Notes: a model not told the origin generated them from the letters alone. Shown: positions 283 through 54,489, counted from the stretch's first letter. The stretch is 60,860 bases of DNA from Rickettsiales bacterium (GCA_049317085.1 JBMOIY010000001.1:1-60860); one strand, 5' to 3'. Translations and numbers: made by a program.

Positions 283-284
283 TT

Positions 285-35933: not shown

Positions 35934-36060
35934 GCTTTGTCAGTAGCTATTTGGCGCCAACCCGTAAAGCAAAAGATATGTGTCAGCGCGAGCAGGGCGA
36001 GCCAGCCATGAGCCCGCAAAGCGGCGCGCAGAGTTGATCAGCAGATCAACTCGCAGCAAC

Positions 36061-37542
36061 TCAATAATACTGTTCCGGCAAATGGTCCTCTTTTGCGAGG
36101 TCGAGGAACCTTGTAAGTTCGCCCTGGAATTGCAGCTTCACGGTGTCGACCGGGCCGTTACGGTGCTTGGCGACGATGACTTCCGCGACGCCGTGGATGG
36201 CGGCCATGTCGGATTGCCATTGGTTGTGCTCGGGCGTGCCTTCTTTGGGTTGCAGGCGCTGTTTGTAATATTCCTCGCGGAAGACGAACATGACGATGTC
36301 GGCGTCCTGCTCGATGCTTCCTGATTCGCGCAGGTCAGCGAGTTGGGGGCGTTTGTCGTCGCGGCTTTCGACGGCGCGGCTGAGCTGGGAGAGGGCGATG
36401 ACAGGGATGTCGAGTTCCTTGGCGATGGCTTTGAGGCCTTGGGTGATCTCCGATACTTCCTGTACGCGGTTGGTCTGGCTGTTGCCGCCTGATGGGCGCA
36501 CGAGTTGCAAATAATCGACGACGAGGAGGGCGACGTTATGCACGCGTTTCAGGCGGCGGGCGCGGCTGCGCAATGCGCCGATAGTGAGGGCCGGTGTGTC
36601 GTCGATATGCAGCGGCAGGCTGGCCATGGCGCTTGAGCTTTCGACGAGGCTCTGGAATTCGGTTTGCGTCAGTTCGCCGCGCTGGAGTTTGTGGGAGCCC
36701 ACACCGCAGGCGGAGGCTAGCAAACGCATGGCGAGCTGTTCGCCCGACATCTCGAGCGAGAAGAAACCAACGGAGCGAGGCTTGCCGCCCCGGGCGAGGA
36801 GGTCCTTGTCCTCCTCGGCGAGGGCTTTGGCGGCGTTGTAGGCCATGGTGGTTGCGAGTGCGGTTTTGCCCATGGCGGGGCGGCCGGCGAGGATCAATAA
36901 ATCCGCGGGGTGGAGGCCGCCGAGCAGGCGGTTCATGTCCTTGAAGCCGGTGGTGACGCCTACCACATCTCCGCTGCGCTGGAAGGCTTTTTCGGTGCGG
37001 TTCAGCGCTTCGACGATGGAGTTCTTGATGGGTTTGAAGCCGCTTTCGCCGTCGCCATCGGTCGCGAGTTTGAAGAGTTGCTGTTCGGTCTGCTCGACGA
37101 GGCTGATGCCACCATGTTCGCTTTGCGGGTTGAAGGCCTCGACCACCGCGCCCTCACCGATGCCGATGAGGCGGCGCTTCACCGCGAGGTCGCGGATGAT
37201 GCGCGTGTAGTCATGGATGTTGATGATGGAGGTGGCGGTGGCGACGAGGCGCGCGAGATATTGGTCCTCCACCCCTTCGGCCCCGGCGAAATGATGCTTG
37301 AGGGTGACGGGGTTCGCGATCAGGCCCTTATCGTTGAATTGCTTGATGGCCTTGAAGATGCGCTGGTGGATGCCGGCATAGAAATCCTCGGGCTCGAGGC
37401 TACTTCCGACATGGTTCAGCGCCTCGTTGTTGGCGAGGATGGCGCCGAGGACGGCCTGTTCCGCCTCAAGATTGTTCGGGGCTTCCTTCACGGGCAGATC
37501 AGATTTCGCATTCGTGTTCGGATGTTCTAGGACCGTGGCCAT
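36061..37542 (-). CDS. dnaB: Replicative DNA helicase DnaB
   Basis: 493 aa with PNNLEAEQAVLGAIL, Walker A GRPAMGKT and LVVDYLQL. Confidence 0.95.
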   Translation of the reverse strand: MATVLEHPNTNAKSDLPVKEAPNNLEAEQAVLGAILANNEALNHVGSSLEPEDFYAGIHQRIFKAIKQFNDKGLIANPVTLKHHFAGAEGVEDQYLARLVATATSIINIHDYTRIIRDLAVKRRLIGIGEGAVVEAFNPQSEHGGISLVEQTEQQLFKLATDGDGESGFKPIKNSIVEALNRTEKAFQRSGDVVGVTTGFKDMNRLLGGLHPADLLILAGRPAMGKTALATTMAYNAAKALAEEDKDLLARGGKPRSVGFFSLEMSGEQLAMRLLASACGVGSHKLQRGELTQTEFQSLVESSSAMASLPLHIDDTPALTIGALRSRARRLKRVHNVALLVVDYLQLVRPSGGNSQTNRVQEVSEITQGLKAIAKELDIPVIALSQLSRAVESRDDKRPQLADLRESGSIEQDADIVMFVFREEYYKQRLQPKEGTPEHNQWQSDMAAIHGVAEVIVAKHRNGPVDTVKLQFQGELTRFLDLAKEDHLPEQYY

Positions 37543-37765
37543 GGATAGTTTGCTCGCTGGTGTTTTTTTATTATCGGCCTAGTAGCATACTGCCAGATAT
37601 TAAGACGACTAGTGATGAGAATGGTTGTGCACACTATGTCGCTTAGCTGCGGGTGAGCGGTGGGGATAAGTCTTATAGTTACTAAAAATAAGTCTTTTCT
37701 AATTAAATTGCTACTTTAATAAAAGTACACTTGCACTATTTTGCATATTTAGTTACTATATCAGT

Positions 37766-39193
37766 ATGAAAATAGAAAAAGAAGAATTGGGGGCTGTTTT
37801 AGCTCAATTTAATCCTTGGTGGAGAGGGGAAAGTATTGCTGATCTTCCTACTTGGAAAAGAGCTGCATACGGAGAATTGCGTCAATGGATTATAAATCCC
37901 CCAGCTGCGAGAGCCACCATGCTTTCTGGTGCGCGGCAAGTGGGCAAAACTACATTAATTATTCAAGCTATTGATGAACTGCTGCGTGATGGTGTGCCTG
38001 CAAGTAACATATTATATGCAACCTTTGACCACCCGCTTTTAAAATTAGCAGGTATTGATACGGTTATTGAAGCGTGGAAGCAGCGCGAACCTAAAAAAGA
38101 TGGTCCAGAATATGTATTTTTGGATGAGGCACAATTCATCCGAGAGTGGGGTACTTGGGTTAAGCATCAAGTGGACTTTGTAAAAAGCAGAAGAATAATT
38201 TTTACTGGTTCAGCTATGCCGCTGACGGAGAAAGATCAAGAATCTGGAGTGGGACGATGGTCTACTATTAAATTAACTACGTTATCTTTTTACGAATATA
38301 CAAGACTTAGAAATCTATCGTTGCCTGAATTACCCAACGTTAAATCGCTTAAAGAGTTATTTAACTGGGAACAGGACAAGATTTATCGTACATCAGAATT
38401 AGCTGCGCCATATCTTGCCCATTTTCATGAATATTTAATAAGAGGCGGATTTCCTCAAAGCGCGCTTGCTCCTACTTTTACACAAGCTCAAAAAATGTTG
38501 CGTGAAGATATAATAGACAAAGTACTTAAGCGGGATATGACCGCATTATTTGGTGTTAGACGTGTCTTAGAGTTAGAGCACACTTTCTTATATTTGTGTA
38601 TGCATGAAGGTGGTCTATTAGACATGCAAGCTCTTTGCACGAACCTAGAGGTCAAGCGGCCTACAGCACAAAATTTTATAGAGTTGTTAAAAGCAACGCA
38701 TCTTATCTATAAGCTTGCTCCGTTTGGGTATGGTAAAAATATTTTGCGCGCTAAATATAAAATTTATTTGGCCGATGCAGCTATCGCTCCAGCAGTCATG
38801 TTAAAAGGACGAAGTGTAATTGATGATACTAAAGCTCTAGGCATAGCGGCAGAAGCAGCAACCTTAAAGCATCTATATGCTCGCTATTACAAAAATGATA
38901 TTCGCTTTAGTTACTGGCGCGGGAAGAAAGATGCGGAAGTAGATTTGGTAGCGGAAATGGGAAGTGATGTTGTCCCATTTGAAGTTAAATATCGCACGCA
39001 ACAAACCCAAGAAAAAGATTTGAAAGGACTTCATCAATTCTGCAAAGAAAAGAAAGTTACACGAGGTTATGTTGTAACGAAATCACCCCAAGATTTTGGA
39101 TTGCTTGCGCAGCGAGATAAAACAGCGCCACCGATATTCAAAGTACCTGCTGCTTTACTGTGTTATTGGATGGGAGAAATGGAAATTTCTTAA
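37766..39193 (+). CDS. AAA+ ATPase with a PD-(D/E)xK-like C-terminal region (AAA_14/DUF4143-type architecture)
   Basis: Walker A GARQVGKTT and Walker B VFLDEAQ. The C-terminus has EVDLV...FEVKY. The DNA is visibly AT-rich and no SD was seen. Confidence 0.8.
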   Translation: MKIEKEELGAVLAQFNPWWRGESIADLPTWKRAAYGELRQWIINPPAARATMLSGARQVGKTTLIIQAIDELLRDGVPASNILYATFDHPLLKLAGIDTVIEAWKQREPKKDGPEYVFLDEAQFIREWGTWVKHQVDFVKSRRIIFTGSAMPLTEKDQESGVGRWSTIKLTTLSFYEYTRLRNLSLPELPNVKSLKELFNWEQDKIYRTSELAAPYLAHFHEYLIRGGFPQSALAPTFTQAQKMLREDIIDKVLKRDMTALFGVRRVLELEHTFLYLCMHEGGLLDMQALCTNLEVKRPTAQNFIELLKATHLIYKLAPFGYGKNILRAKYKIYLADAAIAPAVMLKGRSVIDDTKALGIAAEAATLKHLYARYYKNDIRFSYWRGKKDAEVDLVAEMGSDVVPFEVKYRTQQTQEKDLKGLHQFCKEKKVTRGYVVTKSPQDFGLLAQRDKTAPPIFKVPAALLCYWMGEMEIS

Positions 39194-39208
39194 CATGCCG
39201 TTGAAGAA

Positions 39209-39246
39209 TAAAAAAACCCGGCCATCGCTGGCCGGGTTCTTTTTTC
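39209..39246. terminator. Bidirectional rho-independent terminator
   Basis: AAAAAAACCCGGCC-ATCGCT-GGCCGGGTTCTTTTTT lies between the convergent ATPase gene and rplI. Confidence 0.7.
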
Positions 39247-39266
39247 GTTTGCATCCAAAGCGACGC

Positions 39267-39812
39267 TTACGCAGCTGACTCGTCGTCAGCGGTTTCGGCT
39301 TCCGCTTCTTCCACTTGTGGTGCTGCGTCTTCTTCCTTGGCGGCGAGTTCCTGGGCGAGCAGGCCTTCGGCGTTGCGGGCAACTTGCACTTTCACTTTCA
39401 CATGCACTTCCGGGTGCAGGTTGACGACGGCTTCGTAGACGCCGAGGCTCTTGATCGCGGTGGTGAGGTCGATGTAGCGACGCTCCACTTTGTGACCGGC
39501 TTCCTCGAGCGCAACTTCGACATCGCGTGCGGCAACGGAACCGTAAAGTTTCCCATCTTCCGACGCCTGGCGGATGATGCTGACCGAAAGGTTCTGCATG
39601 CCCGCGGCGAGTTTTTCGGCAGCAGCGCGCGTTTCGGCGTTCTGCTTCTCGAGGACGGCGCGCTTGCCTTCGAAGACTTTCTTGTTGTCTTCGGTGGCGC
39701 GGAGGGCTTTTTTCTCCGGCAGCAGGAAGTTACGGGCGAAGCCGTTCTTTACTTTCACCACGTCGCCAACGGAACCGAGGCGGGCGATGCGTTCTAACAG
39801 AATAACGTCCAT
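39267..39812 (-). CDS. rplI: 50S ribosomal protein L9
   Basis: MDVILLERIARLGSVGDVVKVKNGFARNFLLP, with an acidic C-terminal tail. Confidence 0.9.
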   Translation of the reverse strand: MDVILLERIARLGSVGDVVKVKNGFARNFLLPEKKALRATEDNKKVFEGKRAVLEKQNAETRAAAEKLAAGMQNLSVSIIRQASEDGKLYGSVAARDVEVALEEAGHKVERRYIDLTTAIKSLGVYEAVVNLHPEVHVKVKVQVARNAEGLLAQELAAKEEDAAPQVEEAEAETADDESAA

Positions 39813-39823
39813 GTTCTAATCTC

Positions 39824-40183
39824 CTACGACTGTACGACGTATGGCAGCAATGCGAGGTTGCGGGCGCGTTTGATGGCTTGGGAAAGCGCGCGCTGCTTCT
39901 TCGCGGAAACGGCGGTGATGCGGCTTGGCAGGATTTTGCCACGCTCGGAAATGAAACGGCCGAGCAGTTTCACATCTTTGTAATCCACTGCCGGAGCGTT
40001 CGGGCCCGTGAGGGGGCACGACTTGCGACGACGGAAGAAGACCTTGCGGCCACCAGCAGCATCGCCGCCAGCACCTGCTGTACCATCACGGTCACCGCCG
40101 AAGCTGCGACCACCTTCACGGCCACCGGCCGGACGTTCCGAGCGGCCCTCGCCGCGGGGTTTGAAACCTGTGTTCATGTTCAT
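39824..40183 (-). CDS. rpsR: 30S ribosomal protein S18 with an Arg/Gly-rich N-terminal extension
   Basis: The core is [12 protein letters not shown]...[32 protein letters not shown]. It is preceded by ~45 aa rich in R/G. No alternative start exists between. Confidence 0.9.
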
Positions 40184-40189
40184 TGCTCC

Positions 40190-40537
40190 TTATGCTGCTT
40201 CGTAGCTATCGCCCGATTTGCTTTGCAGCATCACGGTCGGGGTTGCGTCCATGGCGTCCACGCGCACGGTGAGGGTACGAATGATATCCTCGTTGATGCC
40301 CATGTTGCGCTCGAGTTCTTTCAACGTCGCGGGCAACGCCTCGATGCCGAGCATGGTGTAATGGCCCTTGGCCATTTTGTTGATCTTGTACGCCAGCTGG
40401 CGCAGGCCCCAATACTCGGACTTGATGATGGTGCCTTTACCGTCAGTCACGATCTTGCTGAACGTGTCGGTGAGTTTTTGTACGTCGGCCTTAGAAAAAT
40501 CCGGGCGCGTGACGAACGTGCATTCATAAAATGCCAT
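40190..40537 (-). CDS. rpsF: 30S ribosomal protein S6
   Basis: Start moved to MAFYECTFVTRPD (ATG 40537), with GAGGAAG upstream. Confidence 0.9.
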   Translation of the reverse strand: MAFYECTFVTRPDFSKADVQKLTDTFSKIVTDGKGTIIKSEYWGLRQLAYKINKMAKGHYTMLGIEALPATLKELERNMGINEDIIRTLTVRVDAMDATPTVMLQSKSGDSYEAA

Positions 40538-40724
40538 AACGAACTTCCTCATTAACGGCTGCGTTCGATTTGCACACCCCATGTGTGCCTACCCCAACAA
40601 CCTGTGAATTAATGTTCCCCATCGGGGAGGTGGGCTTATAGGGGTGGCCACCGAGTTAGGCAAGCGAAAACTGGCCGGGATTGACGTTGGCAGGGGTTAG
40701 GGGTATCGGGCAGGAGTAAAACTC

Positions 40725-41687
40725 ATGGAGAACCCTATGTCCACCGCACTCGTCTTTCCCGGCCAAGGTAGCCAAGCTATTGGAATGGTACAATCTTTAG
40801 CCGCCGCCTTTCCCGCAGCGCGTGAGGTGTTGCAGCAGGTGGATGATGCATTATCCTTCAAGCTGTCGGCACTGATGAAGGATGGGCCGGAAGCGGAATT
40901 GACCGCGACGCAGAATGCGCAGCCGGCGATCATGGCGGCTTCGCTCGCGGCGTTCCGGGTGATGCAATCGCAAATGGGCTTCAGCCTGCCGAAGGATGCG
41001 GCGTATGTGGCGGGGCATTCGCTCGGCGAATATTCGGCGCTGACGGCGGCGGGGTCACTCACGGTCGCGGAAGCGGCGAAGCTATTGCGCGTCCGCGGCA
41101 ATGCGATGCAGGCGGCGGTGCCGCCAGGGCAGGGTGGCATGGTTGCGGTCATCGGGCCGGAATTGCCCCTGGTGGAGGAGATCGTGGCCGAAGCGCGTCG
41201 GCGGAGCCCAAGCGAAGTGATCGAGATCGCCAATCATAATTCAACGAACCAGATCGTGCTTTCGGGTTCGGCGAAGGGGATGGAAATGGCGATCGAGGTC
41301 GCCAAGGAAAAAGGGGCGAAGCGGGCATTGCCGCTCGCAGTATCCGCACCATTCCATTGTTCGCTGATGGCGCCCGCCGCGTTCGTGATGGAGCAGGCAC
41401 TCAGCGAGGCGAACCTCAAGGATCCAATTGTGCCGCTGGTCGCGAACGTGACCGCAGAAATGGTGGAAGATGCGGCGGCGATCAAAGGGCTGCTGGTGCA
41501 ACAGGTGACCGGGATGGTGCGTTGGGTCGACAGCATCGAGCGCATGAAACAGGCGGGTGTGACGCGCCTGATCGAGATTGGTCACGGCAATGTGCTCGCA
41601 GGTCTCATCAAGCGCATCGCGCCCGAGATTGCGGTGGTGAATATCGGGACGCCTGAAGATTTGGATGCGTTTAGCAAGGCGGTTTAG
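40725..41687 (+). CDS. fabD: Malonyl-CoA-ACP transacylase
   Basis: FPGQGSQ..GM and the GHSLGEYSAL active site. AGGAG lies 8 nt upstream of ATG 40725. Confidence 0.95.
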   Translation: MENPMSTALVFPGQGSQAIGMVQSLAAAFPAAREVLQQVDDALSFKLSALMKDGPEAELTATQNAQPAIMAASLAAFRVMQSQMGFSLPKDAAYVAGHSLGEYSALTAAGSLTVAEAAKLLRVRGNAMQAAVPPGQGGMVAVIGPELPLVEEIVAEARRRSPSEVIEIANHNSTNQIVLSGSAKGMEMAIEVAKEKGAKRALPLAVSAPFHCSLMAPAAFVMEQALSEANLKDPIVPLVANVTAEMVEDAAAIKGLLVQQVTGMVRWVDSIERMKQAGVTRLIEIGHGNVLAGLIKRIAPEIAVVNIGTPEDLDAFSKAV

Positions 41688-42532
41688 TAGGCAGCAATAG
41701 CTTGGTCTATTTTAAAACCAACGGCGCGATGTATATTCTCAACGAATCCTCGCACGCTTATCTGAACTGTTTTAGGTTGGCTTTCTAGGCCTTGAAGTAA
41801 TTGTTCTGGCTGTGCTGCGAGAGTAGCTATGTTTTTCTTGATATATTCTAATACATCCTGCGCTTGGGGAGCAGGCATTTTTTGTATCAGCACCCCTGCA
41901 GCGGACACGCAAGCATCCTCCATCTTTCGGCGAATATCTTTTTTGAAAGGCTGACTTTTATCTAGCCATTCAATCCATTTATCCATTAGCCTTACACTAT
42001 CTGGGTAAAGCACCCTACTGCCCAAGATTGCTTTTTCATAAATTTTTGAAAGCCTTTGTGGATATGTTTCCTCTGATATTGAGCCAGGCATATGTTCATT
42101 ACGCAATAGATCCATTGTTTGTGTAACTTGTACTAGTTTCAGAAAAAAATCATCGCCAAACAGAGAATTGTTACGCCAAACATCCTCGAAATGCGCCCAG
42201 CCGTTACGTAACTCACGTAGTTTCACTATGTGTGGACTGTTGTATAATCTGGGATTTGTCTGCTTACTAAAGCAGCTAGTAAGGTTAAGACCATCGAGTA
42301 GCACGTTCATTCTGAAGCGGTGAGACATCGTTGTTGCCATAAATCCAAGTTTATTGTAATCGACTCCTAATATTTTACATGCATCGGCGACTGTTGGATC
42401 AGTTTGTAGCGATACTATGTCGTTCGAGTTGCCGACACAACCTACTTTTACCATCGCATTGGATAGTCTGTTTGACCCAGGCCATCGGCTCATAATATTT
42501 ACTAGATTGACTAATTTTTGGATGGTTTTCAC
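41684..42532 (-). CDS. Hypothetical protein with an Rx4H (HEPN-type) motif
   Basis: LRELRNGWAHFEDVWRN is encoded at 42191-42208 (R-N-G-W-A-H). The DNA is AT-rich. The stop overlaps the fabD stop. The true start is uncertain (GTG 42532 follows a TAG directly; internal ATGs are possible). Confidence 0.6.
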   Translation of the reverse strand: MKTIQKLVNLVNIMSRWPGSNRLSNAMVKVGCVGNSNDIVSLQTDPTVADACKILGVDYNKLGFMATTMSHRFRMNVLLDGLNLTSCFSKQTNPRLYNSPHIVKLRELRNGWAHFEDVWRNNSLFGDDFFLKLVQVTQTMDLLRNEHMPGSISEETYPQRLSKIYEKAILGSRVLYPDSVRLMDKWIEWLDKSQPFKKDIRRKMEDACVSAAGVLIQKMPAPQAQDVLEYIKKNIATLAAQPEQLLQGLESQPKTVQISVRGFVENIHRAVGFKIDQAIAAY

Positions 42533-42980
42533 CTAAGTCTATGTTTCCGTAATCTTTTACACGTTTTAACTCTTTAAGAATCCTATCCGTACTTTCATCA
42601 CGATTCTCGTGATTAAAATGCGTGAAGATATCTCGCAACCGTTTCGGTGCGTTCCAAGGATAATTCGCTAGTAATGCCTTCACTTCTGGTTCCATGTTTT
42701 TTGCTGCTTCACCTACCAGATTTTTTGCTAATAGCGCAGCTTCCCAGAATGCATAACGAGGCATTATTAGCTCCCAATGCAAACCTTCTCCTGTGATTTT
42801 TTCGGCTAGCAAAAAAGTTTTTATGGTGTAGTGGTATTGTTTATAGCTAGGTAAAGACTTGTAGAAATCCCATAGTTTGCGGCTATCCCATAGCGCCCTA
42901 TCCTCCAGAAACTCTTTCAATGTCTTTGCCATAGGACCAAATAATACAGGCACTTGGTTAAGGATTAATGACAGCTTCAT
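42399..42980 (-). CDS. Hypothetical protein with an Rx4H (HEPN-type) motif
   Basis: KRLRDIFTHFNHE is encoded at 42618-42635 (R-D-I-F-T-H). The start was trimmed to ATG 42980 (or 42932), because the first 28 ORF codons translate a palindromic repeat. The 3' tail overlaps the next ORF by 134 nt. Confidence 0.55.
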   Translation of the reverse strand: MKLSLILNQVPVLFGPMAKTLKEFLEDRALWDSRKLWDFYKSLPSYKQYHYTIKTFLLAEKITGEGLHWELIMPRYAFWEAALLAKNLVGEAAKNMEPEVKALLANYPWNAPKRLRDIFTHFNHENRDESTDRILKELKRVKDYGNIDLGENHPKISQSSKYYEPMAWVKQTIQCDGKSRLCRQLERHSIATN

Positions 42981-43001
42981 GACAATTGCGTGACAATTGC
43001 C
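42980..43001. repeat. Tandem 11-bp direct repeat TGACAATTGCG/TGACAATTGCC
   Basis: Read directly. Each unit contains the palindrome CAATTG. It lies immediately 5' of the upstream HEPN-like ORF. Confidence 0.5.
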
Positions 43002-43040
43002 GTTCAGGTTTGTAGGAACGGGGCTTAAAAACCAACTACT

Positions 43041-43129
43041 TGTCATGCCAGCGAAGGCTGGCATTCAGCTTCTTGGGATTCTCGCGGCGCCGCGCGCCGC
43101 GCTGGATACCAGCCTTCGCTGGTATGACA
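43041..43129. repeat. Nested palindromic (REP/MITE-like) element
   Basis: The 29-nt arms TGTCATGCCAGCGAAGGCTGGCATTCAGC and GCTGGATACCAGCCTTCGCTGGTATGACA are inverted with 3 mismatches. Each arm is itself a hairpin (TGCCAGC-GAAG-GCTGGCA). The centre holds GCGGCGC-CGC-GCGCCGC. Confidence 0.7.
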
Positions 43130-43148
43130 ATATAACGAGGAGACGACC

Positions 43149-43886
43149 ATGACCCACCTATCAGGCAAACGCGCTCTTATCACCGGCGCTTCAGGCGGCA
43201 TCGGCGGGGCGATTGCCAAAGCATTGGTAGCGGCGGGTGCGAGTGTCGCCATTTCGGGCACGCGGGTCGAGGCGCTGGAGGCGCTGAACGCAGAGCTGGG
43301 TGGCGTGGCGAAAGTGCTGCCATGCAATTTGACGGATGGTGCGGCGGTGGATGCTTTACCGGGGCAGGCGGAAGCCGCTTTAGGCGGTTTGGATATTCTG
43401 GTTTGTAACGCTGGTGTCACTAAAGATGGCCTCGCGATGCGGATGAAGGATGAGGATTTCACCTCGGTACTCGACATTAATCTGGTCGCGACATTCCGCC
43501 TGAATCGTGCAGTATTGAAACCCTTCATGAAGCAGCGCTCGGGGCGCATTATCAATATCGCGTCGGTGGTTGCGGTCATGGGCAACCCTGGGCAGGCGAA
43601 TTATTGTGCATCGAAAGCCGGGATGATCGGGATGAGCAAATCGCTGGCGCAGGAAGTCGGCAGCCGCGGTATCACCGTGAATTGCGTGGCGCCCGGGTTC
43701 ATCAAGACAGCGATGACGGACAAATTGAATGAAGAGCAGCAGAAGCGCATTACGGATAACATCCCGGCGCAGCGGTTCGGGTTGCCGGAGGATGTGGCGG
43801 CGGGTGTGGCGTTCCTCGCGTCCGAAGGCGCGAGCTATATCACCGGGCACACGCTGCATATCAATGGCGGCCTGTTGATGGTATAG
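43149..43886 (+). CDS. fabG: 3-oxoacyl-ACP reductase
   Basis: 245 aa with GKRALITGASGGIGGAIA, NAG and the YCASKAG catalytic motif. GAGGAG RBS is present. Confidence 0.95.
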   Translation: MTHLSGKRALITGASGGIGGAIAKALVAAGASVAISGTRVEALEALNAELGGVAKVLPCNLTDGAAVDALPGQAEAALGGLDILVCNAGVTKDGLAMRMKDEDFTSVLDINLVATFRLNRAVLKPFMKQRSGRIINIASVVAVMGNPGQANYCASKAGMIGMSKSLAQEVGSRGITVNCVAPGFIKTAMTDKLNEEQQKRITDNIPAQRFGLPEDVAAGVAFLASEGASYITGHTLHINGGLLMV

Positions 43887-43890
43887 CGGC

Positions 43891-45144
43891 GTGGCCCTTT
43901 CTTATGAAGTGCTACGCAATCGCGATTTTCGCCGCATCCTTGCGACGCGGCTCTGCGGGATTTTTGCGTTGCAAGCGCAGGCGGTCATCGTCGGTTGGCA
44001 GGTCTATAGCCTGACGAAAGACCCGTTAATGCTTGGGCTGGTGGGGTTGGTGGAGGCGGTGCCTGCTATTATCTTCGCACTTTTTGCAGGGCATATCGTC
44101 GATAAGAGCCGTCCGCATTTCATCTTCCGCAATTGTTTGCTCGTGCATTGTGTCATCTCGTTCATCGTGCTGATCGTCGCCGGAGGTTTCGCCGGGGCGA
44201 GCCGGGACATGGTATTGGTGACGTTGTTCATCGGCGTGTTCCTATCAGGGTTGACGCGCAGTTTCATCATGCCGTCCTCGTTCACGCTGCTGTCGCGGAT
44301 TGTGCCGCGGGCGAATATCCCGGCGGCGCTGTCATGGATGACGAGTGGTTTCCAGCTTGCGGCCATTGGCGGCCCGGCAATCGCTGGGCTTGTCTATGGT
44401 GGGTATGGCGCATCGGTCGCGTGGTTCATGCCGTTTATTTTCTTAGCTGCTGCAACTGCGGTGGTCAGTGGCATTAGCCCTGAGCACCGTGAATTCAAGA
44501 ATCAGGATAGCCGCGAACCGGCGGTGAAAAGCATCGCGGCAGGGTGGAAGTTCGTCATTGGCAATCGCGTGCTGTTGCCGATTATGATGCTCGATATGTT
44601 TGCTGTGTTGTTCGGTGGTGCAGTTGCTATCCTACCCGTGTTTGCGGACCAGGTACTGCATACGGGGTCGGAAGGGCTGGGGTTGTTGCGCGCGGCACCG
44701 GCGATCGGGTCCATTATCACTGCGCTTTATTTTGCAGTGAAGCCAATGAAGGTGATTCGTGCGACGCGCTTGCTGATGGCGGTCGCGGGTTTCGGCGTGT
44801 GCATGGTGTGTTTTGGGCTTTCCACCAGCTTTGGAGCCGCAGCATTTTTCCTCGCGCTCAGTGGTGCGTTCGACAGTGTAAGCATGGTGGTGCGCGGGAC
44901 ATTGATGCAGTTGCTGATTCCGGACACGATGCGCGGGCGTGTATCCGCACTCAACAGTATGTTCATTATTTCGTCGAACGAGATAGGCGCGTTCGAATCG
45001 GGTGCTGCGGCAAGTTTGCTCGGATTGATTCCGTCAATTCTCATTGGGGGAAGTATGTCGCTGCTGGTCGTTGGGTTCACGACCCTGTTCTGCGGCGATT
45101 TGCGCAGGCTGGTAGTGCATACGGATAAGAAAGAAACGGCCTAG
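43891..45144 (+). CDS. MFS transporter
   Basis: 417 aa, roughly 12 hydrophobic helices, with an LRNRDFRRIL N-terminus as in MFS_3-type exporters. Confidence 0.8.
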   Translation: MALSYEVLRNRDFRRILATRLCGIFALQAQAVIVGWQVYSLTKDPLMLGLVGLVEAVPAIIFALFAGHIVDKSRPHFIFRNCLLVHCVISFIVLIVAGGFAGASRDMVLVTLFIGVFLSGLTRSFIMPSSFTLLSRIVPRANIPAALSWMTSGFQLAAIGGPAIAGLVYGGYGASVAWFMPFIFLAAATAVVSGISPEHREFKNQDSREPAVKSIAAGWKFVIGNRVLLPIMMLDMFAVLFGGAVAILPVFADQVLHTGSEGLGLLRAAPAIGSIITALYFAVKPMKVIRATRLLMAVAGFGVCMVCFGLSTSFGAAAFFLALSGAFDSVSMVVRGTLMQLLIPDTMRGRVSALNSMFIISSNEIGAFESGAAASLLGLIPSILIGGSMSLLVVGFTTLFCGDLRRLVVHTDKKETA

Positions 45145-46871
45145 CTCGTAGGTTTTTCTTCTGGCTTTCTTTCTGCAGCAGGGGTTGTGGATGAGGGCGC
45201 AAACAGACCCTCAAAGAAATTCGGTTTATCCTCTGCCGCAGGGCTTACATTTTGCTGCGTTTCTGGTGCAGCAATCGGTGCAGCATGTTGGGGTGCGATT
45301 GTTTCGGGTTTTGCCGGTGCCTGCCAGCTGCCGCCGAGGGCTTTTACTAACTGCACCGTGGTGATATATTGATTGCCGCGCACTTGTACTTGGGCGCGCT
45401 GGGCGGCGAGGTAGCTGCGTTGTGCGTCGAGATATTCCAAGTGACTGGTGTAACCTGCATCGAAGCGTTGCCCCGCAACTTTATTTGCGCGGGTCGCCGC
45501 GCTCAGGCCTGCATCGACCGCTTTAGTCTGTTCGCTTAAATTGCGGATGCCGCTGAGTTGGTCCTCGACCTCGCGGAAGGCAGTGAGTACGGATTCGCGA
45601 TAGGTCGCGGTGGCGGCGTTGAAATCAGCTTGGGTTTGCGCTTTCGCAGCGGCGATGCGGCCACCTTCGAAGATGGGCTGGGTGATGACGGTGCCCGCAA
45701 GTGGGCCAATGGTCCAGGTGCGGTTCGACCATTTGAAGAGATCGCCCAGATCACCCGAAACGAAACCGCCGACGGCGCTCAGCGAGATATCAGGGAAGTA
45801 GCCTCCGCGGGCGACGCCGATGCGCTGGTTGGCGGCAGCGATAAGGCTTTCGGCCTGTTTGATATCCGGGCGGCGCTCGAGCAGGCTTGAGGGGATGCCT
45901 GCGGGAATGGTCGGTGGTGGCGTTGACAGATCAGCAGTCTCCACTTTCAGTTCCGATGATGGCACGCCGATCAGGGTAGCGAGGGCATGTTCGCTCACGG
46001 CGAGGTTTTGGGCGACCACTGTTGCATCGGATTTCACGGCGGCGCGATCAGTCTCGGCGGAAGAAAGAACGAGGGAATCGATCTCACCGACTTCGTGGCG
46101 TTTGCGTGTGAGCTCTAAATACTTGTCGCGGGTGGCGACGGTATCGGTGAGGATTTTATTTTCGGCGCGCAGGGCTGCGACACGGAAATAGGCTTGCACG
46201 ATTTCGGTTTGTAACGCTAAGCGCGCGGCGCGGTAATTATTCTGTTCGGCTTCTGCATCTTTTTCCGCCGCTTTTACACGGGCGCGGGTCTGGCCGAAAA
46301 GGTCGAGTTCATAGGTGATGGAACCTTGCGCGGTGTAGAGGTTGTAAGGTTTAGTCGTCGGCGTAATGCCGGGCGGCAGGCTGACTTCCTGAGCGGCTGC
46401 GGATGGACGCGTGCGTTGCGGTCCAATGCCGGCAGAGATGGATGGGTAGAGATCGGCCGCGCGTGTATCGACCACGGCGCGGGCGCTGTTGACGCGTTCG
46501 CGGGCGATATCGAGCGATGGGTTATCCTTCATCGCCTGATCCATCAGCGCGTCAAGCTTGCTATCGTTGAACATGCGCCACCAGGCGAATTCCTCTATCT
46601 GAGCTTTTTCGTCGAAGCGTTTCCATTTGCCGTCGGTCGCGGGTTCGACGGTCACCGTTTCCGCGCTGGTGTCTTCTTTAAAGGCGGAAGGCGTAAACAC
46701 TTCCGGTAGTTTCAAATCGGGTGCGAGGTCGCAGGCGGTGAGTGGCAGCAGCATGACGCCGAGCAATAGCATCTTTCTGCGCTTGGCCTTCCATGGCGAG
46801 CCGCTCGTGGCAGTGGTCAGCGATGAAGGCGCGTAGGGGGCAAGGCCCCTTTCAATGATATAGTCACGCAT
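45141..46871 (-). CDS. Efflux outer-membrane factor lipoprotein (NodT family)
   Basis: Lipobox LLPLTAC with paired OEP repeats. It has a Pro/Ala-rich C-terminal tail. The start overlaps the RND stop by 8 nt. Confidence 0.85.
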   Translation of the reverse strand: MRDYIIERGLAPYAPSSLTTATSGSPWKAKRRKMLLLGVMLLPLTACDLAPDLKLPEVFTPSAFKEDTSAETVTVEPATDGKWKRFDEKAQIEEFAWWRMFNDSKLDALMDQAMKDNPSLDIARERVNSARAVVDTRAADLYPSISAGIGPQRTRPSAAAQEVSLPPGITPTTKPYNLYTAQGSITYELDLFGQTRARVKAAEKDAEAEQNNYRAARLALQTEIVQAYFRVAALRAENKILTDTVATRDKYLELTRKRHEVGEIDSLVLSSAETDRAAVKSDATVVAQNLAVSEHALATLIGVPSSELKVETADLSTPPPTIPAGIPSSLLERRPDIKQAESLIAAANQRIGVARGGYFPDISLSAVGGFVSGDLGDLFKWSNRTWTIGPLAGTVITQPIFEGGRIAAAKAQTQADFNAATATYRESVLTAFREVEDQLSGIRNLSEQTKAVDAGLSAATRANKVAGQRFDAGYTSHLEYLDAQRSYLAAQRAQVQVRGNQYITTVQLVKALGGSWQAPAKPETIAPQHAAPIAAPETQQNVSPAAEDKPNFFEGLFAPSSTTPAAERKPEEKPTS

Positions 46872-49800
46872 GGGGAACCCCTTGGGTGGGTGCTTTGGGT
46901 GGGAAGAACCGCACGGTGAGTGTACGTACGATCACATAGAACATCGGGGTCATTAAGAGGCCGAAACCGGTAACGCCGATCATGCCGGAGAAGACGGCGA
47001 CGCCCATGTCCTTGCGCATTTCCGAGCCGGCACCGGTCGCGGTGACGAGGGGAATAACACCCATGACGAAGGCGAAGGAGGTCATCAGGATAGGTCGCAG
47101 GCGCAAGTGGGCAGCTTCGAGCGCGGCAGCGGTGATGCTGCGACCCTGATGCTCCAATTCGCGCGCGAACTCGACGATGAGGATGGCGTTCTTACAGGCT
47201 AGCCCGACGAGGACGATGAACCCGATCTGGGTAAAAATATTATTCTCGCGGCCCATGAGCCAGACGCCGAAGACGGCACCGAGTAGGCAGAGCGGCACGA
47301 TGAGTATCACCGCGAGTGGCAGGCTCAGGCTTTCATATTGGGCGGCCAGGACGAGGAAAACGAACAGCACGCAAAGTGGGAAGACGAAAAGGGCGGTGTT
47401 GCCTGCCAGAATTTGCTGGTAGGTCAGCTCCGTCCATTCGTAGGTCATGCCTTTGGGCAATGTTTCATCGAGGATTTTGATGATGGCGGCTTTCGCCTGA
47501 CCGGAGGAGAAGCCGGGTGCTGCATCGCCGTTCAAGTCGGCGGAGCGGAAAGCATTGTAACGTGTCGCGCGGTCGGGGCCGTAGGTCTCTTTCACATCGA
47601 CCAATGAGCCGAGCGGGACCATGGTGCCGTTGCGACTGCGGACTTTCAACTGGCCGATATCTTCCTTATGCGCACGGTATGGTGCATCTGCCGACGCGTA
47701 AACGCGGAAAGTGCGGCCGAAGAGGTTGAAGTCGTTCACGTAGTAGGAGCCGAGATAAATTTGTAGCGTGTCGAAAAGGTCGGCCAGCGCGATATTCTGT
47801 TGCTTGGCATGCATGCGGTTGATGTTGATATCAAGTTGCGGCACGCCGTTCTGGAAGGAACTGAAGACACCGGCGAGGCCCGGGGTCTGGAATGCTTTTC
47901 CCTGAATCTGGCCAATGACGCCCGCGAGTGCATCGTACCCCTGATCGGTGCGATCCTGAATCTCGAGCTTGAAGCCGCCGATGGTGCCAAGGCCCATCAC
48001 CGGTGGCGGCGGGAAGATAGCAACATACGCGCCCTGGATGACTCCAAATTGCTGGTTCAAGGCACCGGCGATGGCGCCGGCGGACAGGTCCCCGGTGGTG
48101 CGTTCTTCGAATGGTTTCAGCGTCACGAAGACGATGCCGCCGCTGCTGCTATTGCTAAAGCCTGCGATCGAAAGACCGGGGAAAGCGACGGAGTTGGCAA
48201 CACCCGGATGCTTGAGGGCGATGTCCGACATCTGGCGGATAACGGCGTCGGTGCGTTCGAGCGAAGCGCCCGGTGGTAATTGCGCAAAGGCGACGAGGTA
48301 TTGTTTATCCTGCGCGGGCACATAGCCGCCCGGTACTTGCGAGAAGCCGAGTACTGTCAATGCTAGCAGCACCAGGTAGATGGTGCCGAGTAGCTTCTTG
48401 CTATGGAACGACCATTGAACAAGACGGGCGTAACGCTCCGACGCATTGTGGAAGAAGTGGTTGAAGCGCGCAAAACCTGCAGTCTTCGGGTCGTTATTTT
48501 TCGACAGGATGAAACGAGTGGTCTGGATGAGGCCGATCGCGAGTGCAGCGATTACCGCTACTTTAAAGCCGATGGCGACGACCATCAGCACCATGCCCGG
48601 GCCGAAGAGCTTGATGGCCGCCCATTTGACGATGAGGCCGACGAGGAAGAGCACAATCGCGTAACGCCACCAGCGCGTGGCTGCGAAGATGCCGCCGAAG
48701 ACGGTTTCCATTTTGCGGGTCAGCCAATCATGGGGGGCATCATGACCGCGCAGGAGAATGGCGGAGAGGGCAGGGCTTAGCGTCAGTGAATTGAACGCAG
48801 AGATGACAGTAGAAATGGCGATGGTCAGGGCAAATTGCTTATAGAACTGACCCGTCAGCCCGCTGATGAAGGCGATGGGTACGAACACGGCGCAAAGGAC
48901 GAGCGCGATGGCGATGATGGGCCCGGAAACTTCGCGCATGGCCTGATAGGTCGCTTCGCGCGGCTTGAGGCCGTTCTCGATGTTACGTTCGACGTTCTCG
49001 ACGACAACAATTGCGTCATCGACCACGATGCCGATTGCGAGTACCAATCCGAAGAGGCTGAGGGCGTTGATGGAGAAGCCGATCATATGCATGATCGCAA
49101 AGGTTCCGACGATGGAAATCGGCACGGCGAGGAGCGGGATGATGGAAGCGCGCCATGTCTGCAGGAAGATGATGACGACGAGCACGACGAGCAGGATGGC
49201 CTCGAAGAGCGTGTGGATCACCGCGTCGATGGATTGGTCGACGAAGCGGGTGGGGTCGTAGACGATGTCATACGTCACGCCTTCGGGGAAGTTGGCTTTC
49301 AGCTCTTCCATTGTTTTGCGGACTTTGGCGGCGAGTTCGAGCGCGTTTGAGCCTGGGGACTGGAAGATACCGATACCGACGGCGGGTTTGTTGTTGAGCA
49401 GCGAGCGCAATGAATAGCTGCTGGCACCGAGTTCGACGCGGGCGACATCCTTCAGGTGTGTCACGGCGCCTTTGTCGTCGGACTTCACGATGATGTCCTC
49501 GAACTCCTCGACGGATTTGAGGCGGCCTTGCACGTTGACGGGCAGCTCGAATGGAATCTCGGCGCCGCTGGGTTGGGAGCCGATCGTGCCGGCGGCGATC
49601 TGGATGTTCTGTTCGCGGATGGCATTGGTCACATCCGACGCGCTCAGGTTGCGGGCGGCTAGTTTGTTGGGGTTTAGCCAGACACGCATGGCGTAATCCC
49701 CGCCACCGAACACTTCCACCTGACCGACACCCGAGAGGCGGGCGAGCTGGTCCTTGACGTTGATGAGACCGTAATTGCGCAAATAGGTGATGTCATAGCG

Positions 49801-50256
49801 CTCATTGGGGGAGAGGAGGTGGACGACCATGATGAAGTCCGGTGAGGATTTCACGGTGGTGACGCCGAGGGCGCGCACCACATCCGGCAAGCGTGGCGTT
49901 GCCTGCGCGACACGGTTCTGCACGAGTTGTTGGGCGAGGTCGGCATTGGTGCCGAGTTTGAAGGTGACGGTGATGGTCATCGCGCCATCGGTGGTGGCCT
50001 GAGAACTCATGTAGAGCATGTTCTCGACACCGTTGATCTGTTCTTCGAGCGGGGCGGCGACGGTCTCGGCAATCACTTTAGGGTTGGCGCCGGGGTAGAA
50101 GGCGGAGACGACGACGGAAGGGGGAACGACTTCCGGATACTCGGAGATCGGCAGCAGGAACATGGAAATGGAGCCTGCGATGAATATGAAGAACGACAAT
50201 ACCGCCGCGAGGATCGGGCGGTCGATAAAGCGATGTGAAATATCGAGACCGGCCAT
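46864..50256 (-). CDS. RND efflux permease (AcrB/HAE1-type) with an extra central insertion
   Basis: 1130 aa with the IDRPILA N-terminus and VVDDAIVVVEN. About 75 extra residues lie between TM6 and TM7. Confidence 0.95.
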   Translation of the reverse strand: MAGLDISHRFIDRPILAAVLSFFIFIAGSISMFLLPISEYPEVVPPSVVVSAFYPGANPKVIAETVAAPLEEQINGVENMLYMSSQATTDGAMTITVTFKLGTNADLAQQLVQNRVAQATPRLPDVVRALGVTTVKSSPDFIMVVHLLSPNERYDITYLRNYGLINVKDQLARLSGVGQVEVFGGGDYAMRVWLNPNKLAARNLSASDVTNAIREQNIQIAAGTIGSQPSGAEIPFELPVNVQGRLKSVEEFEDIIVKSDDKGAVTHLKDVARVELGASSYSLRSLLNNKPAVGIGIFQSPGSNALELAAKVRKTMEELKANFPEGVTYDIVYDPTRFVDQSIDAVIHTLFEAILLVVLVVIIFLQTWRASIIPLLAVPISIVGTFAIMHMIGFSINALSLFGLVLAIGIVVDDAIVVVENVERNIENGLKPREATYQAMREVSGPIIAIALVLCAVFVPIAFISGLTGQFYKQFALTIAISTVISAFNSLTLSPALSAILLRGHDAPHDWLTRKMETVFGGIFAATRWWRYAIVLFLVGLIVKWAAIKLFGPGMVLMVVAIGFKVAVIAALAIGLIQTTRFILSKNNDPKTAGFARFNHFFHNASERYARLVQWSFHSKKLLGTIYLVLLALTVLGFSQVPGGYVPAQDKQYLVAFAQLPPGASLERTDAVIRQMSDIALKHPGVANSVAFPGLSIAGFSNSSSGGIVFVTLKPFEERTTGDLSAGAIAGALNQQFGVIQGAYVAIFPPPPVMGLGTIGGFKLEIQDRTDQGYDALAGVIGQIQGKAFQTPGLAGVFSSFQNGVPQLDININRMHAKQQNIALADLFDTLQIYLGSYYVNDFNLFGRTFRVYASADAPYRAHKEDIGQLKVRSRNGTMVPLGSLVDVKETYGPDRATRYNAFRSADLNGDAAPGFSSGQAKAAIIKILDETLPKGMTYEWTELTYQQILAGNTALFVFPLCVLFVFLVLAAQYESLSLPLAVILIVPLCLLGAVFGVWLMGRENNIFTQIGFIVLVGLACKNAILIVEFARELEHQGRSITAAALEAAHLRLRPILMTSFAFVMGVIPLVTATGAGSEMRKDMGVAVFSGMIGVTGFGLLMTPMFYVIVRTLTVRFFPPKAPTQGVPHA

Positions 50257-50257
50257 G

Positions 50258-51526
50258 CTAGTCGGCCTTCGGTGCGTCGGTTGCTGGCGCGGCTTCGGCG
50301 GGTTTATCGGCTGCTGGTGTTTCTGCGGCAGGCGTAGGATTCAGTGATTGCAACGTGATCATGTCCACTTCGCTGCCGGCGATGGGAGTGCCGGGGCGGG
50401 CGCGTTGCAGGCCGCTGACGATGATTTGCTCGCCAGGTTTGAGGCCGCTGCTGACGACTTGCAGCCCATCGACGATGCCGCCGAGGGTGACTTCGCGGTA
50501 TTCGGCTTTGCTGTCTTTATCCACGACCATGACGAATTTTTTGCTCTGGTCGGTGTTGACGGCGGTGGGGTGGATGAGGATGGCGTCGGTTTCATCCGCC
50601 GAGCCGAGGCGCACTTGCGCGTAGAGTCCGGGGACTAATGTGCCGTCCGTGTTCGGCAACAGCGCGCGGACACGGATAGTGCCGCTGCCGGGGGTGATCT
50701 GATTGTCAAAGGAATGGATAGTGGCTTTGGTGTAGGTGGCGCTATTGTTGCTGAACGCGACTTCGACCGGGATGGTTTTCAGTTTCGCGGCGGGTGTCCC
50801 TTGAATGGATTTCAGGAAGGTCTGTTCGTCGATATCGAAACTGGCATAAACAGGCGAGAGGTCGACGATGCTGGCGAGTGCTTGTGCGTTGCTTGGGTCA
50901 ACGAGGTTGCCAACAGTGACTTCTGCACGGCTGATTTTACCGGTAATCGGGGCGGTGATGTGGGCGTAAGCGAGGTTGATCTCGGCAGTGCGTGCTGCAG
51001 CTTTAGCGGATTCGAGCTGGCCGTTCGCTTGTTTCAGGGCGCTTGCGCGTTGTTCATATTCACTTTGCGAAATGGCTTTGCTCTTGATGAGTTTGGTGGC
51101 GCGGGCCATGTCCTGCGCGGCGTTGGCCTGTGCGCCACTGGCGGCGACGAGCTGGCCTTTGGCGCGGGCGGCTTCAGCTTCATAGGGGCGGGTATCGATG
51201 GTGAACAGGCCTTGGCCTTTTTTTACTTCGGAGCCATCCTTGAAATGAATCGCGGTGATCTGTCCGCCGACGCGCGGGCGCACCTCGACCGAGTTCACGG
51301 CCTGCAGGATACCGGAGAAATTGCTCCATTGGGTGATGGGCTTGTTGATAACAGTGGCGATGCTGACCGGCGGGCCTGCAGGAGCTTCAGCTGCTGCTTT
51401 CCTCGCATCATCGCCTGAAGGATTGCGCCCAAACGCGACATATGCGCCTACTGCAACAATGGCCAGAATAATAAGGGGTTTGACCGGGAATCTACGCTTT
51501 GGCGATTGAAGTTGCGACACCATCAT
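50258..51526 (-). CDS. RND periplasmic adaptor (MFP)
   Basis: 422 aa with a signal anchor. The coiled-coil/lipoyl/beta-barrel pattern is typical of AcrA-like proteins. Confidence 0.9.
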   Translation of the reverse strand: MMVSQLQSPKRRFPVKPLIILAIVAVGAYVAFGRNPSGDDARKAAAEAPAGPPVSIATVINKPITQWSNFSGILQAVNSVEVRPRVGGQITAIHFKDGSEVKKGQGLFTIDTRPYEAEAARAKGQLVAASGAQANAAQDMARATKLIKSKAISQSEYEQRASALKQANGQLESAKAAARTAEINLAYAHITAPITGKISRAEVTVGNLVDPSNAQALASIVDLSPVYASFDIDEQTFLKSIQGTPAAKLKTIPVEVAFSNNSATYTKATIHSFDNQITPGSGTIRVRALLPNTDGTLVPGLYAQVRLGSADETDAILIHPTAVNTDQSKKFVMVVDKDSKAEYREVTLGGIVDGLQVVSSGLKPGEQIIVSGLQRARPGTPIAGSEVDMITLQSLNPTPAAETPAADKPAEAAPATDAPKAD

Positions 51527-51580
51527 GCACTCGTGCTTTAAAGGATTTTACATCTCTATTGCGCTGCACCCTAACCCTAC

Positions 51581-51619
51581 TTGACCGTTCAGTCAATCGT
51601 TAGTTGACTGGTCGGTCAA
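51581..51619. promoter_or_regulatory. Two TTGAC-N6-GTCAA palindromes, candidate TetR operator
   Basis: TTGACCGTTCAGTCAA-tcgttag-TTGACTGGTCGGTCAA lies in the divergent region between the MFP and TetR genes. Confidence 0.4.
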
Positions 51620-51655
51620 ATTTTAGTATCTCAGTGGCATCAGCGCAGGAGATAT

Positions 51656-52315: not shown

Positions 52316-52398
52316 CCAAACCCGCGAAAATCGCCTATTGCGGCGCACCATGGGCGCAATGCTTTGCGCCATAACCTCCTAACCTGTTGAAATGTATC

Positions 52399-54219: not shown

Positions 54220-54255
54220 TCCTTTGGCCATTGGGAATGGACGGGATCGGATTAT

Positions 54256-54482: not shown

Positions 54483-54489
54483 CTCACAC

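Follow-up and report, generated by a model that had tools for sequence, protein, structure and literature searches.

Paired HEPN domains form composite ribonuclease (RNase) sites in several well-studied systems, among them HepT dimers, Ire1 and RNase L, and Cas13. HepT/DUF86 is the HEPN toxin of HEPN-MNT type VII toxin-antitoxin modules. Two HEPN domains in a single chain are, to our knowledge, otherwise found mainly in Cas13 among well-studied proteins. Here we describe a gene, referred to as gene X, that lies between the fatty-acid-synthesis genes fabD and fabG in a 60,860-nucleotide stretch of DNA from Rickettsiales bacterium (GCA_049317085.1 JBMOIY010000001.1:1-60860); this whole stretch is called the window. 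Gene X appears there as two open reading frames (ORFs), but these are the halves of one gene split by a single-base frame change, and homologues of the intact gene occupy the same gap in related genomes. We think it probable, on a moderate balance of the evidence, that gene X is a hypervariable RNase-like conflict gene encoding two HEPN domains in one chain, and that it is inactivated in the window genome.

A preliminary description of the locus, made from the sequence alone, had noted about 1.4 kb of AT-rich DNA parting fabD from fabG, and measurement bears this out. The gap is 1.46 kb long and has a GC content of 0.41, with 0.37-0.38 at third codon positions (GC3), compared with 0.61 and 0.73 for fabD and 0.59 and 0.70 for fabG. 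The two minus-strand ORFs in this islet, A and B, overlap by 134 nt in different frames. We conclude that they are two halves of a single gene of about 415 codons, divided by a one-base frame change. Synteny provides one line of evidence. We fetched relatives of the window's fabD and inspected their fabD/fabG gaps (numbered labels beginning with L denote loci and contigs, those beginning with P proteins). In L003, whose fabD is 71% identical to that of the window, one minus-strand ORF of 412 amino acids (aa) fills the same AT-rich gap. ORF A matches residues 1-110 of its product and ORF B residues 212-393 (E 9e-12), collinearly, and the L003 protein holds both of the motifs that are separated in the window, as RLRDELTH and TRNVWAH. 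An exhaustive phmmer comparison of ORF B with 1.84 billion cluster representatives yielded 16 relatives of 404-482 aa and one fragment, and in all of these relatives ORF B aligns to the C-terminal halves only. When the homologues were compared with the window by tblastn, frame A was matched down to about 42534 and frame B from 42505.

Because a TAG at 42533-42535 closes frame B and homology switches frames there, the frame change can be placed within 42505-42533. This zone contains GAAAAC, with an A run at 42526-42529, and CAAAAAT, with an A run at 42515-42519. Removal of one A gives a 415-aa frame that aligns with the family from end to end, and the simplest cause of the frame change is one extra A in the A4 or the A5 run. 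The gene starts at the ATG at 42932, not at 43064, and stops at 41684; residues 1 onward from this ATG (MAKTLKEFLE..., MAKTLKEFLEDRA) are the family's conserved N-terminus. Public gene calls at the locus are inconsistent (P0001, 218 aa; P0002, 221 aa; P0019, 256 aa; P0009, 480 aa), and P0002 and P0009 are called 44 and 34 codons too early, through conserved leader DNA. The lesson for annotation is that the public 218-aa and 221-aa calls are artefacts of a frame change in one gene.

The preliminary description had instead seen two separate HEPN proteins, forming a toxin-immunity or abortive-infection pair newly inserted into the fab operon. The window does show two open ORFs, the public gene calls include two proteins (P0001 and P0002), and there is one Rx4H motif in each ORF. 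Nevertheless, each homologue is one polypeptide carrying both motifs, and homologues of the two ORFs, which had been expected to occur together as separate genes, are all fused in one ORF. The 134-nt overlap in different frames has its junction at A runs, neither a start signal nor a Shine-Dalgarno sequence is convincing for ORF B, and at least 11 other related loci share the site, hence the insertion is not recent. A pair of this kind is therefore very improbable. What stands of the earlier account is that there are two minus-strand ORFs without an AGGAG-type site before their starts; that they are two genes does not. Similarly, the convergent overlap with fabD is real, but the stop codons had been said to overlap by 3 nt: the genes overlap by 4 nt (41684-41687) and the stop codons share 2. 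Gene X is the sole gene in the gap. Between fabD and fabG we found no further ORF that matches a protein family and, in agreement with the earlier account, no MNT nucleotidyltransferase, helix-turn-helix protein, integrase or transposase.

Is the break a real feature of the genome? Clustered at 90%, the ORF B gene call has a single companion, which comes from the Logan assembly of run SRR30676221. Logan contig L094 (1,523 nt) is 100% identical to the window over a 1,484-nt overlap, both A runs included, and therefore a second assembler reproduces the break. The neighbouring genes fabD, fabG, rpsF, rpsR, rplI, dnaB and alr are intact, as is an equally AT-rich ATPase gene in which ten A/T runs are at least 5 long; the region thus shows no general indel noise. 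Frame B is open for 282 codons, for which the chance is about 7e-9 at this composition, and both halves are still fully open. We consider it likely that the break is a true and recent inactivation, and the window copy is most likely a very recent pseudogene.

A different explanation is that the gene is intact in the organism, and that the frame change reflects either a homopolymer error in sequencing or consensus building, or +1 slippage on CCA-AAA-A. The position of the break exactly at the A4 and A5 runs would suit this, as would the perfectly open state of both halves with no second lesion, and Lys-tRNA (transfer RNA) could re-pair in the +1 frame on AAAAA. It also counts against a true inactivation that L094 may share the window's reads; assembler slip would then be excluded, but systematic read error would not. 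Nevertheless, the Logan assembly shows the same run lengths, nearby AT-rich and GC-rich genes are intact, and the site has no stop, rare codon or prfB-type stimulatory Shine-Dalgarno sequence. A frameshift is needed by no homologue, so it is not a family feature, and we rejected programmed frameshifting as a trait of the family on the ground that all homologues are uninterrupted. Overall we regard an intact gene as unlikely.

The family to which gene X belongs is rare, fast-evolving and previously undescribed. It comprises about 17 sequence clusters among the 1.84 billion representatives. As a family it carries no annotation and matches nothing in NCBIfam, PHROGs or PADLOC, and in Pfam a single member just passes a threshold. 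Neither ORF A nor ORF B has a meaningful match in Pfam, NCBIfam, PADLOC or PHROGs, and a word-indexed search of 5.8 billion proteins with each ORF gave self matches only. When the family profile was run against the same proteins, P0017 and self matches were found among the matches listed. No family homologue was detected by tblastn in plasmid and phage collections, a scan for MAKTL[KR]EF found none in genomes and one locus in JGI metagenomes, and a search of the literature on HEPN together with fabD and fabG found nothing.

Conservation was counted in a family alignment of 17 sequences, with the N-domain counts taken over 16. Five blocks stand out: the first 16 residues; a helix with an invariant G74-E75; P82...PW (92-93)...RLRDxxTH; S219.F...R[NDH]xx[AS]HF; and a C-terminal domain of about 120 residues in which Y298, G304, A340 and A344 are invariant. 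Both Rx4H motifs reported in the preliminary description, RDIFTH and RNGWAH, are encoded at the positions it gave, and their R and H residues prove to be conserved among homologues. In the C-terminal motif R242, H247 and F248 are invariant in 17/17, and the resemblance of RNGWAH to the RNxxAH variant holds for the family consensus as well. In the N-terminal motif R100 is invariant and H105 is kept in 14/16, the two exceptions, P0005 and P0011, having Lys. The residue at 243 is N (14 sequences), D (2) or H (1), and that at 101 is D (13) or H (3).

Two features of the family deserve separate mention. In one subgroup (P0005, P0011 and the full-length form of P0008 in L095), Lys replaces the N-domain His (RDLNVKYGE) with the C-domain motif intact; the N domain of this subgroup may be catalytically degenerate. 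In addition, the C-terminal tails (41687-41713 in the window) are disordered, basic and rich in small residues. Ten of the 17 end in A and four of these in AA (KRAA, EVAA, RSAA, GAAA), an ending reminiscent of ssrA-like ClpXP degrons or else of the basic tails of type IV secretion.

An AlphaFold2 model of the repaired 415-aa protein, built with the 17-sequence alignment, is all-alpha, with a predicted local distance difference test score of 82.3 and a predicted template modelling score of 0.79; confidence is lower near the repaired junction and in the last 9 residues. A helix at 94-104 precedes H105 and a helix at 233-245 precedes H247, and a model of the isolated C domain agrees. Aligned with hhalign, the N half and the C half place the long helix and the motif in register (P 6e-4), suggesting that the two halves may descend from an internal duplication.

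In described HEPN active sites a helix ends at the motif, the loop that comes next begins with the His, and the Arg is followed by a polar N, D or H (PMC3710099). In the model both gene X motifs are predicted to fit this description, each closing the C-terminal end of its helix and placing the His in the loop beyond, and the residue directly after the conserved R is N, D or H in both domains. Described sites also have a conserved acidic residue on the helix before the motif (Ex3[KR]-like). The N domain has an invariant E75 and a K78 in 13/16, in helix 59-84 (spacing Ex2K in the window protein), and the C domain has D or E at position 213 in 15/17, in helix 192-216. The preliminary description had taken the two motifs themselves as a HEPN signature. 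Their conservation and the residue after R agree with that, but about 0.5 Rx4H motifs are expected by chance in one protein of this composition. Because the pair alone is not significant, it is conservation across the family that gives the motifs their weight.

Profile searches point in the same direction. The Pfam HepT-like family (PF01934) matches the N domain in 6/17 members, and one of these, P0015, is the sole one to pass the gathering score (24.2 vs 23.5 bits, E 2.9e-5, profile positions 14-93 of 120). At the C motif there are sub-threshold matches to HEPN_Apea (E 0.0025), HEPN_Swt1 (0.019), AbiU2 (0.1), RiboL-PSP-HEPN, Ribonuc_2-5A and DUF4145. The best match of the C-domain profile among PDB sequences is the catalytic LRALRNKYHHF of the Ire1 KEN domain, which at E 0.7 is not significant. 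PADLOC gave mostly weak CARF-type matches in one or two members (CARF6, E 4e-4; CARF_HEPN, E 0.02; Csx1, E 0.027), the last two being models that include HEPN, together with two weak matches unrelated to CARF or HEPN. That weak matches converge on the HEPN clade, and always at the motif, seems unlikely to have arisen by chance.

Several observations weigh against a HEPN assignment. The structural comparison proposed in the preliminary description gave no significant neighbour: Foldseek found nothing significant with the full model against PDB and BFVD, or with the isolated C-domain model against PDB (best E 0.4, 1.4 and 0.7), and a Csm6 HEPN entry came at rank 38 with E 8.4. Profile and single-sequence searches of PDB sequences yielded chance-level matches only (mL40, cutinase-type esterases and the Ire1 motif). 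Profile searches had been proposed as a further check, and here the outcome is divided, with P0015 over the HepT-like threshold but the C-domain matches below theirs and the window protein itself reaching no Pfam, NCBIfam, PADLOC or PHROG threshold. Lys stands in for the N-domain His in one subgroup, and a symmetric site with two His is therefore not shared by all members. Weighing both sides, we lean somewhat towards a family that is HEPN-like, though not a proven member of the clade.

These same results bear on the idea that gene X encodes a lineage-specific, all-helical protein that is neither HEPN nor RNase and whose conserved R and H serve another purpose; it could, say, be a type IV effector secreted towards a eukaryotic host, or act as a regulator or scaffold. 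The failure of Foldseek to find any structural neighbour, HEPN included, would be expected of such a protein, as would HEPN profile matches that are sub-threshold with one exception. The carriers are named Rickettsiales, and a SET-domain gene and a Rick_17kDa antigen gene in their fab regions suggest host association; tandem paralogue arrays such as effector families have, and the disordered, basic, small-residue tails, would also fit. It leaves unexplained, however, the invariant R and H of the C-terminal motif with the F that follows, the position of the motifs in the predicted helices, which is that of the HEPN description, and the weak matches from three independent libraries, which recur at the catalytic motifs of HEPN families and hardly anywhere else. 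Moreover, a protein with a HEPN RNase fold could also be an effector. We therefore consider a non-HEPN protein unlikely.

Genomic context was readable for 14 family members. In 12 of these, gene X lies tail-to-tail with fabD, mostly with the same 4-nt overlap, and it is divergent from fabG where this is visible; the other two members (L096 and L098/99) lie elsewhere. The fabD-adjacent contexts are those of the window, L003, L083, L084, L085/86, L087/88, L089, L090/91, L092, L095, L097 and an array in L082. All carriers are uncultured alphaproteobacteria of a small clade, the named records being metagenome-assembled genomes labelled 'Rickettsiales bacterium' and one mislabelled 'Azospirillum'. 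Whatever the host, gene X is AT-rich. Carriers compared with one another have 70-90% identity in fabD and 21-31% in X; for L087 and L083 the values are 90% and 26%. In the closest fabD relatives, L001 (84-89%; 84% for the fabD of the window against that of L001) and L002, the site is empty, with a 58-76-nt spacer that has no leader motif. These comparisons indicate that the locus is a hypervariable cassette site, rather than one of fresh insertion; the preliminary notion of a recent or unique insertion into a core operon is contradicted by the same family in the same gap in at least 11 other related loci.

The L082 array is especially informative. It consists of three tandem paralogues of 426, 430 and 460 aa, and after each of them comes an antisense remnant of the fabD 3' end. 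The remnants correspond to the last ~25 codons of fabD, and the first two break at essentially the same point, ...CTCATCAAGCGC. The paralogues are about 25-35% identical, whereas the non-coding remnants are about 72% identical to the window's fabD. Tandem duplication in situ was rejected as the origin of the array, the paralogues being far more diverged than the non-coding remnants. Because of this divergence, the array is better explained by successive acquisition of a cassette together with a piece of fabD. The repeated remnants with the same breakpoint suggest site-directed capture at the fabD 3' end, with no visible integrase.

Could X instead be a vertically inherited housekeeping or RNA-processing factor, fast-evolving and between fabD and fabG by chance? 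The conserved position and tail-to-tail overlap with fabD in 12 contexts, and a conserved leader of its own, would be natural for such a gene. But it is entirely lacking in close relatives with 84-89% fabD identity and inactivated in the window genome, it is 21-31% identical where fabD is 86-90%, its GC3 is 0.37 vs 0.73 for fabD, and the stacked cassettes of L082 carry fabD remnants. A housekeeping role thus has very little probability. The cassette behaviour fits the pattern of a conflict gene: presence or absence, extreme divergence, stacking of paralogues and inactivation. The suggestion in the preliminary description that this is a defence or conflict-type unit remains plausible to this extent, as foreign composition and very fast evolution fit a conflict gene. 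For a location in defence islands, which it had proposed to check, we found no evidence, and it tells against a defence role that no defence island, phage or plasmid location was recognisable for any member.

No partner gene is conserved across contexts. Small ORFs in L085, L090 and L082 were considered as partners and rejected, as they have no family match, including to NTP_transf_2/MNT-type families. The earlier statement that this is not the classical HEPN-MNT module is thus extended to the relatives, with no MNT gene in the islet or in any of the 14 contexts. The rpsF-fabD-fabG-acpP-fabF block of relatives does carry other genes, namely ParE/ParD (L085 3723-4310), BrnT/BrnA (L090 9704-10226) and a SET-domain gene (L087 4875-5252); in this clade, accessory genes generally land in the spacers between the genes of the block.

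Gene X is preceded by a conserved leader, of which there are two types. Type 1 (L083, L084, L085, L089, L095, L082a and L082c) has ATTGTCACGAnAATAGA and a nearly invariant TTTACCATTGATTAACnTCAATGGGTTAGAATGGG that ends 5-7 nt before the ATG. Type 2, with (A)TTGTCA(C/T)G boxes, is found in the window, L087, L003, L092 and ahead of a small L082 ORF. In the window the repeated boxes lie at 42968-43000, with an 11-nt tandem repeat at 42980-43000 and TATTAT 8 nt before the ATG, and there is no Shine-Dalgarno sequence. A -10-like box this close to the ATG, with no Shine-Dalgarno sequence, suggests a messenger RNA that is leaderless or nearly so. The leader motif is lacking in the empty fabD-fabG spacers of L001 and L002. 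The leader is far better conserved than its coding sequence, TTAACnTCAATGGGTTAGAAT being nearly invariant before proteins that are about 25% identical (e.g., L083 1930-1965), and the type 2 leader also heads an unrelated 100-aa ORF in L082. Because it is kept ahead of divergent and unrelated ORFs, we interpret it as a module with promoter or regulatory function. For the type 1 leader we rejected both an RNA hairpin and a palindromic operator, because changes in the left arm are uncompensated and the right arm is invariant.

At its right edge the islet abuts a nested palindrome, as had been reported; it is present at 43040-43130, with the gene X leader on one side and the ribosome-binding site of fabG on the other, and occurs once in the window. 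Each of its arms holds its own CCAGC-GAAG-GCTGG hairpin, and it looks like a miniature inverted-repeat transposable element (MITE) or a repetitive extragenic palindromic (REP)-like element. It is absent from the otherwise collinear L087 leader and is specific to the window genome.

Table 1. Features of the gene X locus and of related sequences. Positions are those of the window unless another locus or residues are named.
Feature	Position	Strand	Basis or remark
fabD (malonyl-CoA-ACP transacylase)	40725..41687	+	ORF; Acyl_transf_1 recorded for orthologues
fabG (3-oxoacyl-ACP reductase)	43149..43886	+	ORF; adh_short recorded for orthologues at the same position; divergent from gene X
ORF A	42399-43064	-	ORF call
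ORF B	41684-42532	-	ORF call
Gene X N-terminal part, frame A, residues 1-135	42528..42932	-	tblastn of 16 homologues; family alignment
Frame-change zone, +1	42505..42533	-	Frame switch by tblastn; TAG closing frame B at 42533-42535
Out-of-frame ORF A tail, stop TGA 42399-42401	42399..42527	-	No family homology in that frame
Gene X C-terminal part, frame B, residues 136-415	41684..42526	-	phmmer, C-terminal halves of homologues, E down to 2.6e-35
N-domain motif R100-D-I-F-T-H105	42618..42635	-	Family consensus RLRDxxTH
C-domain motif R242-N-G-W-A-H247, then F248	42191..42208	-	Family consensus R[NDH]xx[AS]HF
Part holding the first HEPN-like domain (putative)	residues 1-135		
Second HEPN-like domain (putative)	residues ~170-285		
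C-terminal helical domain (predicted)	residues ~286-405		
Gene X leader/promoter region	42933..43039	-	Conserved with leaders of L087, L003, L092 and the small L082 ORF
Nested palindrome, MITE-like	43040..43130	.	91 nt; 30-nt arms, 90% complementary
fabD 3' remnants in L082 (~residues 294-319)	L082 1319-1396, 3978-4052, 5523-5567	antisense	One after each paralogue

How might the product of an intact gene X act? It would be a single cytoplasmic chain with two HEPN-like domains carrying the motifs R100/H105 and R242-N243/H247. By analogy with systems in which HEPN domains pair, the two motifs could come together in one composite, metal-independent RNase site, and the conserved C-terminal helical domain of about 120 residues might serve in regulation or target recognition. 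With no antitoxin gene, restraint would have to come from this C-terminal domain or from low expression, which could follow from an AT-rich gene without a Shine-Dalgarno sequence, or from the overlap with the convergent fabD, where no terminator would fit. Such a protein could be a toxin, an abortive-infection-like RNase or, less certainly, a host-directed effector, and its opponent a phage, a competing element or a eukaryotic host.

A bolder scheme, which we consider improbable, treats the fabD/fabG gap as a dedicated exchange site for integrase-less, promoter-bearing cassettes that bring a replacement fabD 3' end, with an RNase that is released when fabD transcription collapses. The cassettes would always break near fabD codon 294, and their main cargo would be a new class of stand-alone RNases with two HEPN domains in a single chain. 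The convergent overlap with fabD, an essential and highly transcribed gene, would act as an antisense brake. Attack by a phage or host, for example, would lift the brake, making the whole a suicide or defence module that senses transcription shutoff and needs no antitoxin gene.

The surroundings of gene X include other irregularities. We found no CRISPR or other repeat array within 36000-48000, no direct repeats flanking the islet and no integrase or attC-like element at it, and Rfam identified one tRNA and nothing else in the whole window. A second AT-rich islet (37766-39193, plus strand, GC 0.39) lies in the dnaB-rplI gap and contains an intact 475-aa ATPase with AAA_14 and DUF4143 domains and a weakly Mrr_cat-like C-terminus; the same spot is empty in L087 and holds a different, unknown 260-aa gene in L085. 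The fab cluster is also split after fabG, by about 12.7 kb (43891-56660) that separates it from fabF (56660-57919) and yceG (58438-59463). This block contains an MFS_3 transporter, an OEP/AcrB/HlyD efflux trio, typA/bipA and a flavin adenine dinucleotide (FAD) oxidoreductase. In relatives fabG, acpP and fabF either stand side by side or are parted by different small inserts, namely ParDE in L085 and a SET-domain gene in L087. Finally, a stretch of lower GC content at 18000-25000 (0.45-0.53), beside the window's only tRNA (24884-24957, minus strand), carries an ADP-ribosylglycohydrolase, a 907-aa DUF2339 membrane protein and an MFS transporter, and may be a tRNA-associated island.

If the HEPN assignment holds, gene X would encode a compact protein in which about 415 aa accommodate two HEPN domains on a single chain, with neither CRISPR nor an antitoxin, from a family so far invisible to curated libraries, apart from the marginal Pfam match of P0015. 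The locus also provides a clean example, from nature, of a hypervariable cassette fixed between two genes essential for fatty-acid synthesis, and closely related genomes show it in empty, single, triple and inactivated states. It could show how genes are exchanged without an integrase at core-gene junctions in poorly known, probably host-associated alphaproteobacteria.

Of the described systems, HepT shares with the gene X N domain the pattern ...PW..L.RLRDxxTH, the polar residue after R and the position at a helix end. Gene X differs in having no adjacent MNT in any of its loci, and in the fusion of this domain to another HEPN-like domain, followed by a further helical one of about 120 residues. 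Cas13 likewise has two HEPN-type Rx4H motifs per polypeptide, which hints at an intramolecular composite RNase site in gene X and not at one formed by a homodimer, but Cas13 proteins are far larger (~800-1300 aa, compared with ~415), and gene X has no CRISPR array nearby, no recognisable lobe for binding CRISPR RNA, and no sequence or Foldseek similarity to them. The C-domain consensus L..lRN..AHF.D aligns with the catalytic LRALRNKYHHFMD of Ire1, and the KEN family of Ire1 and RNase L (Ribonuc_2-5A) matches two members; these matches are non-significant (E 0.7; 0.017-0.07), and gene X, unlike Ire1 and RNase L, has no kinase or ankyrin module and is bacterial. Stand-alone HEPN proteins of abortive infection and defence (AbiD/F, AbiU2, AbiV, ApeA, Swt1-like) resemble gene X in being solo, without an antitoxin, in the RNxxAH variant, and in being fast-evolving, compositionally foreign and polymorphic for presence. 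Here the differences are that the matches are sub-threshold, that gene X has no defence island and no PADLOC model, and that no model of a described defence protein in PADLOC-DB 2.0 matches, the window protein having no match at all. Last, the locus can be compared with core-gene hotspots and islands that restore the 3' end of their target. Although gene X cassettes, unlike those islands, are single genes with their own promoter and have no integrase, attC-like element or flanking direct repeats, they share with them fixed flanks, empty and occupied sites, divergent AT-rich alleles and, in L082, tandem accretion with a copy of the target's 3' end behind each cassette.

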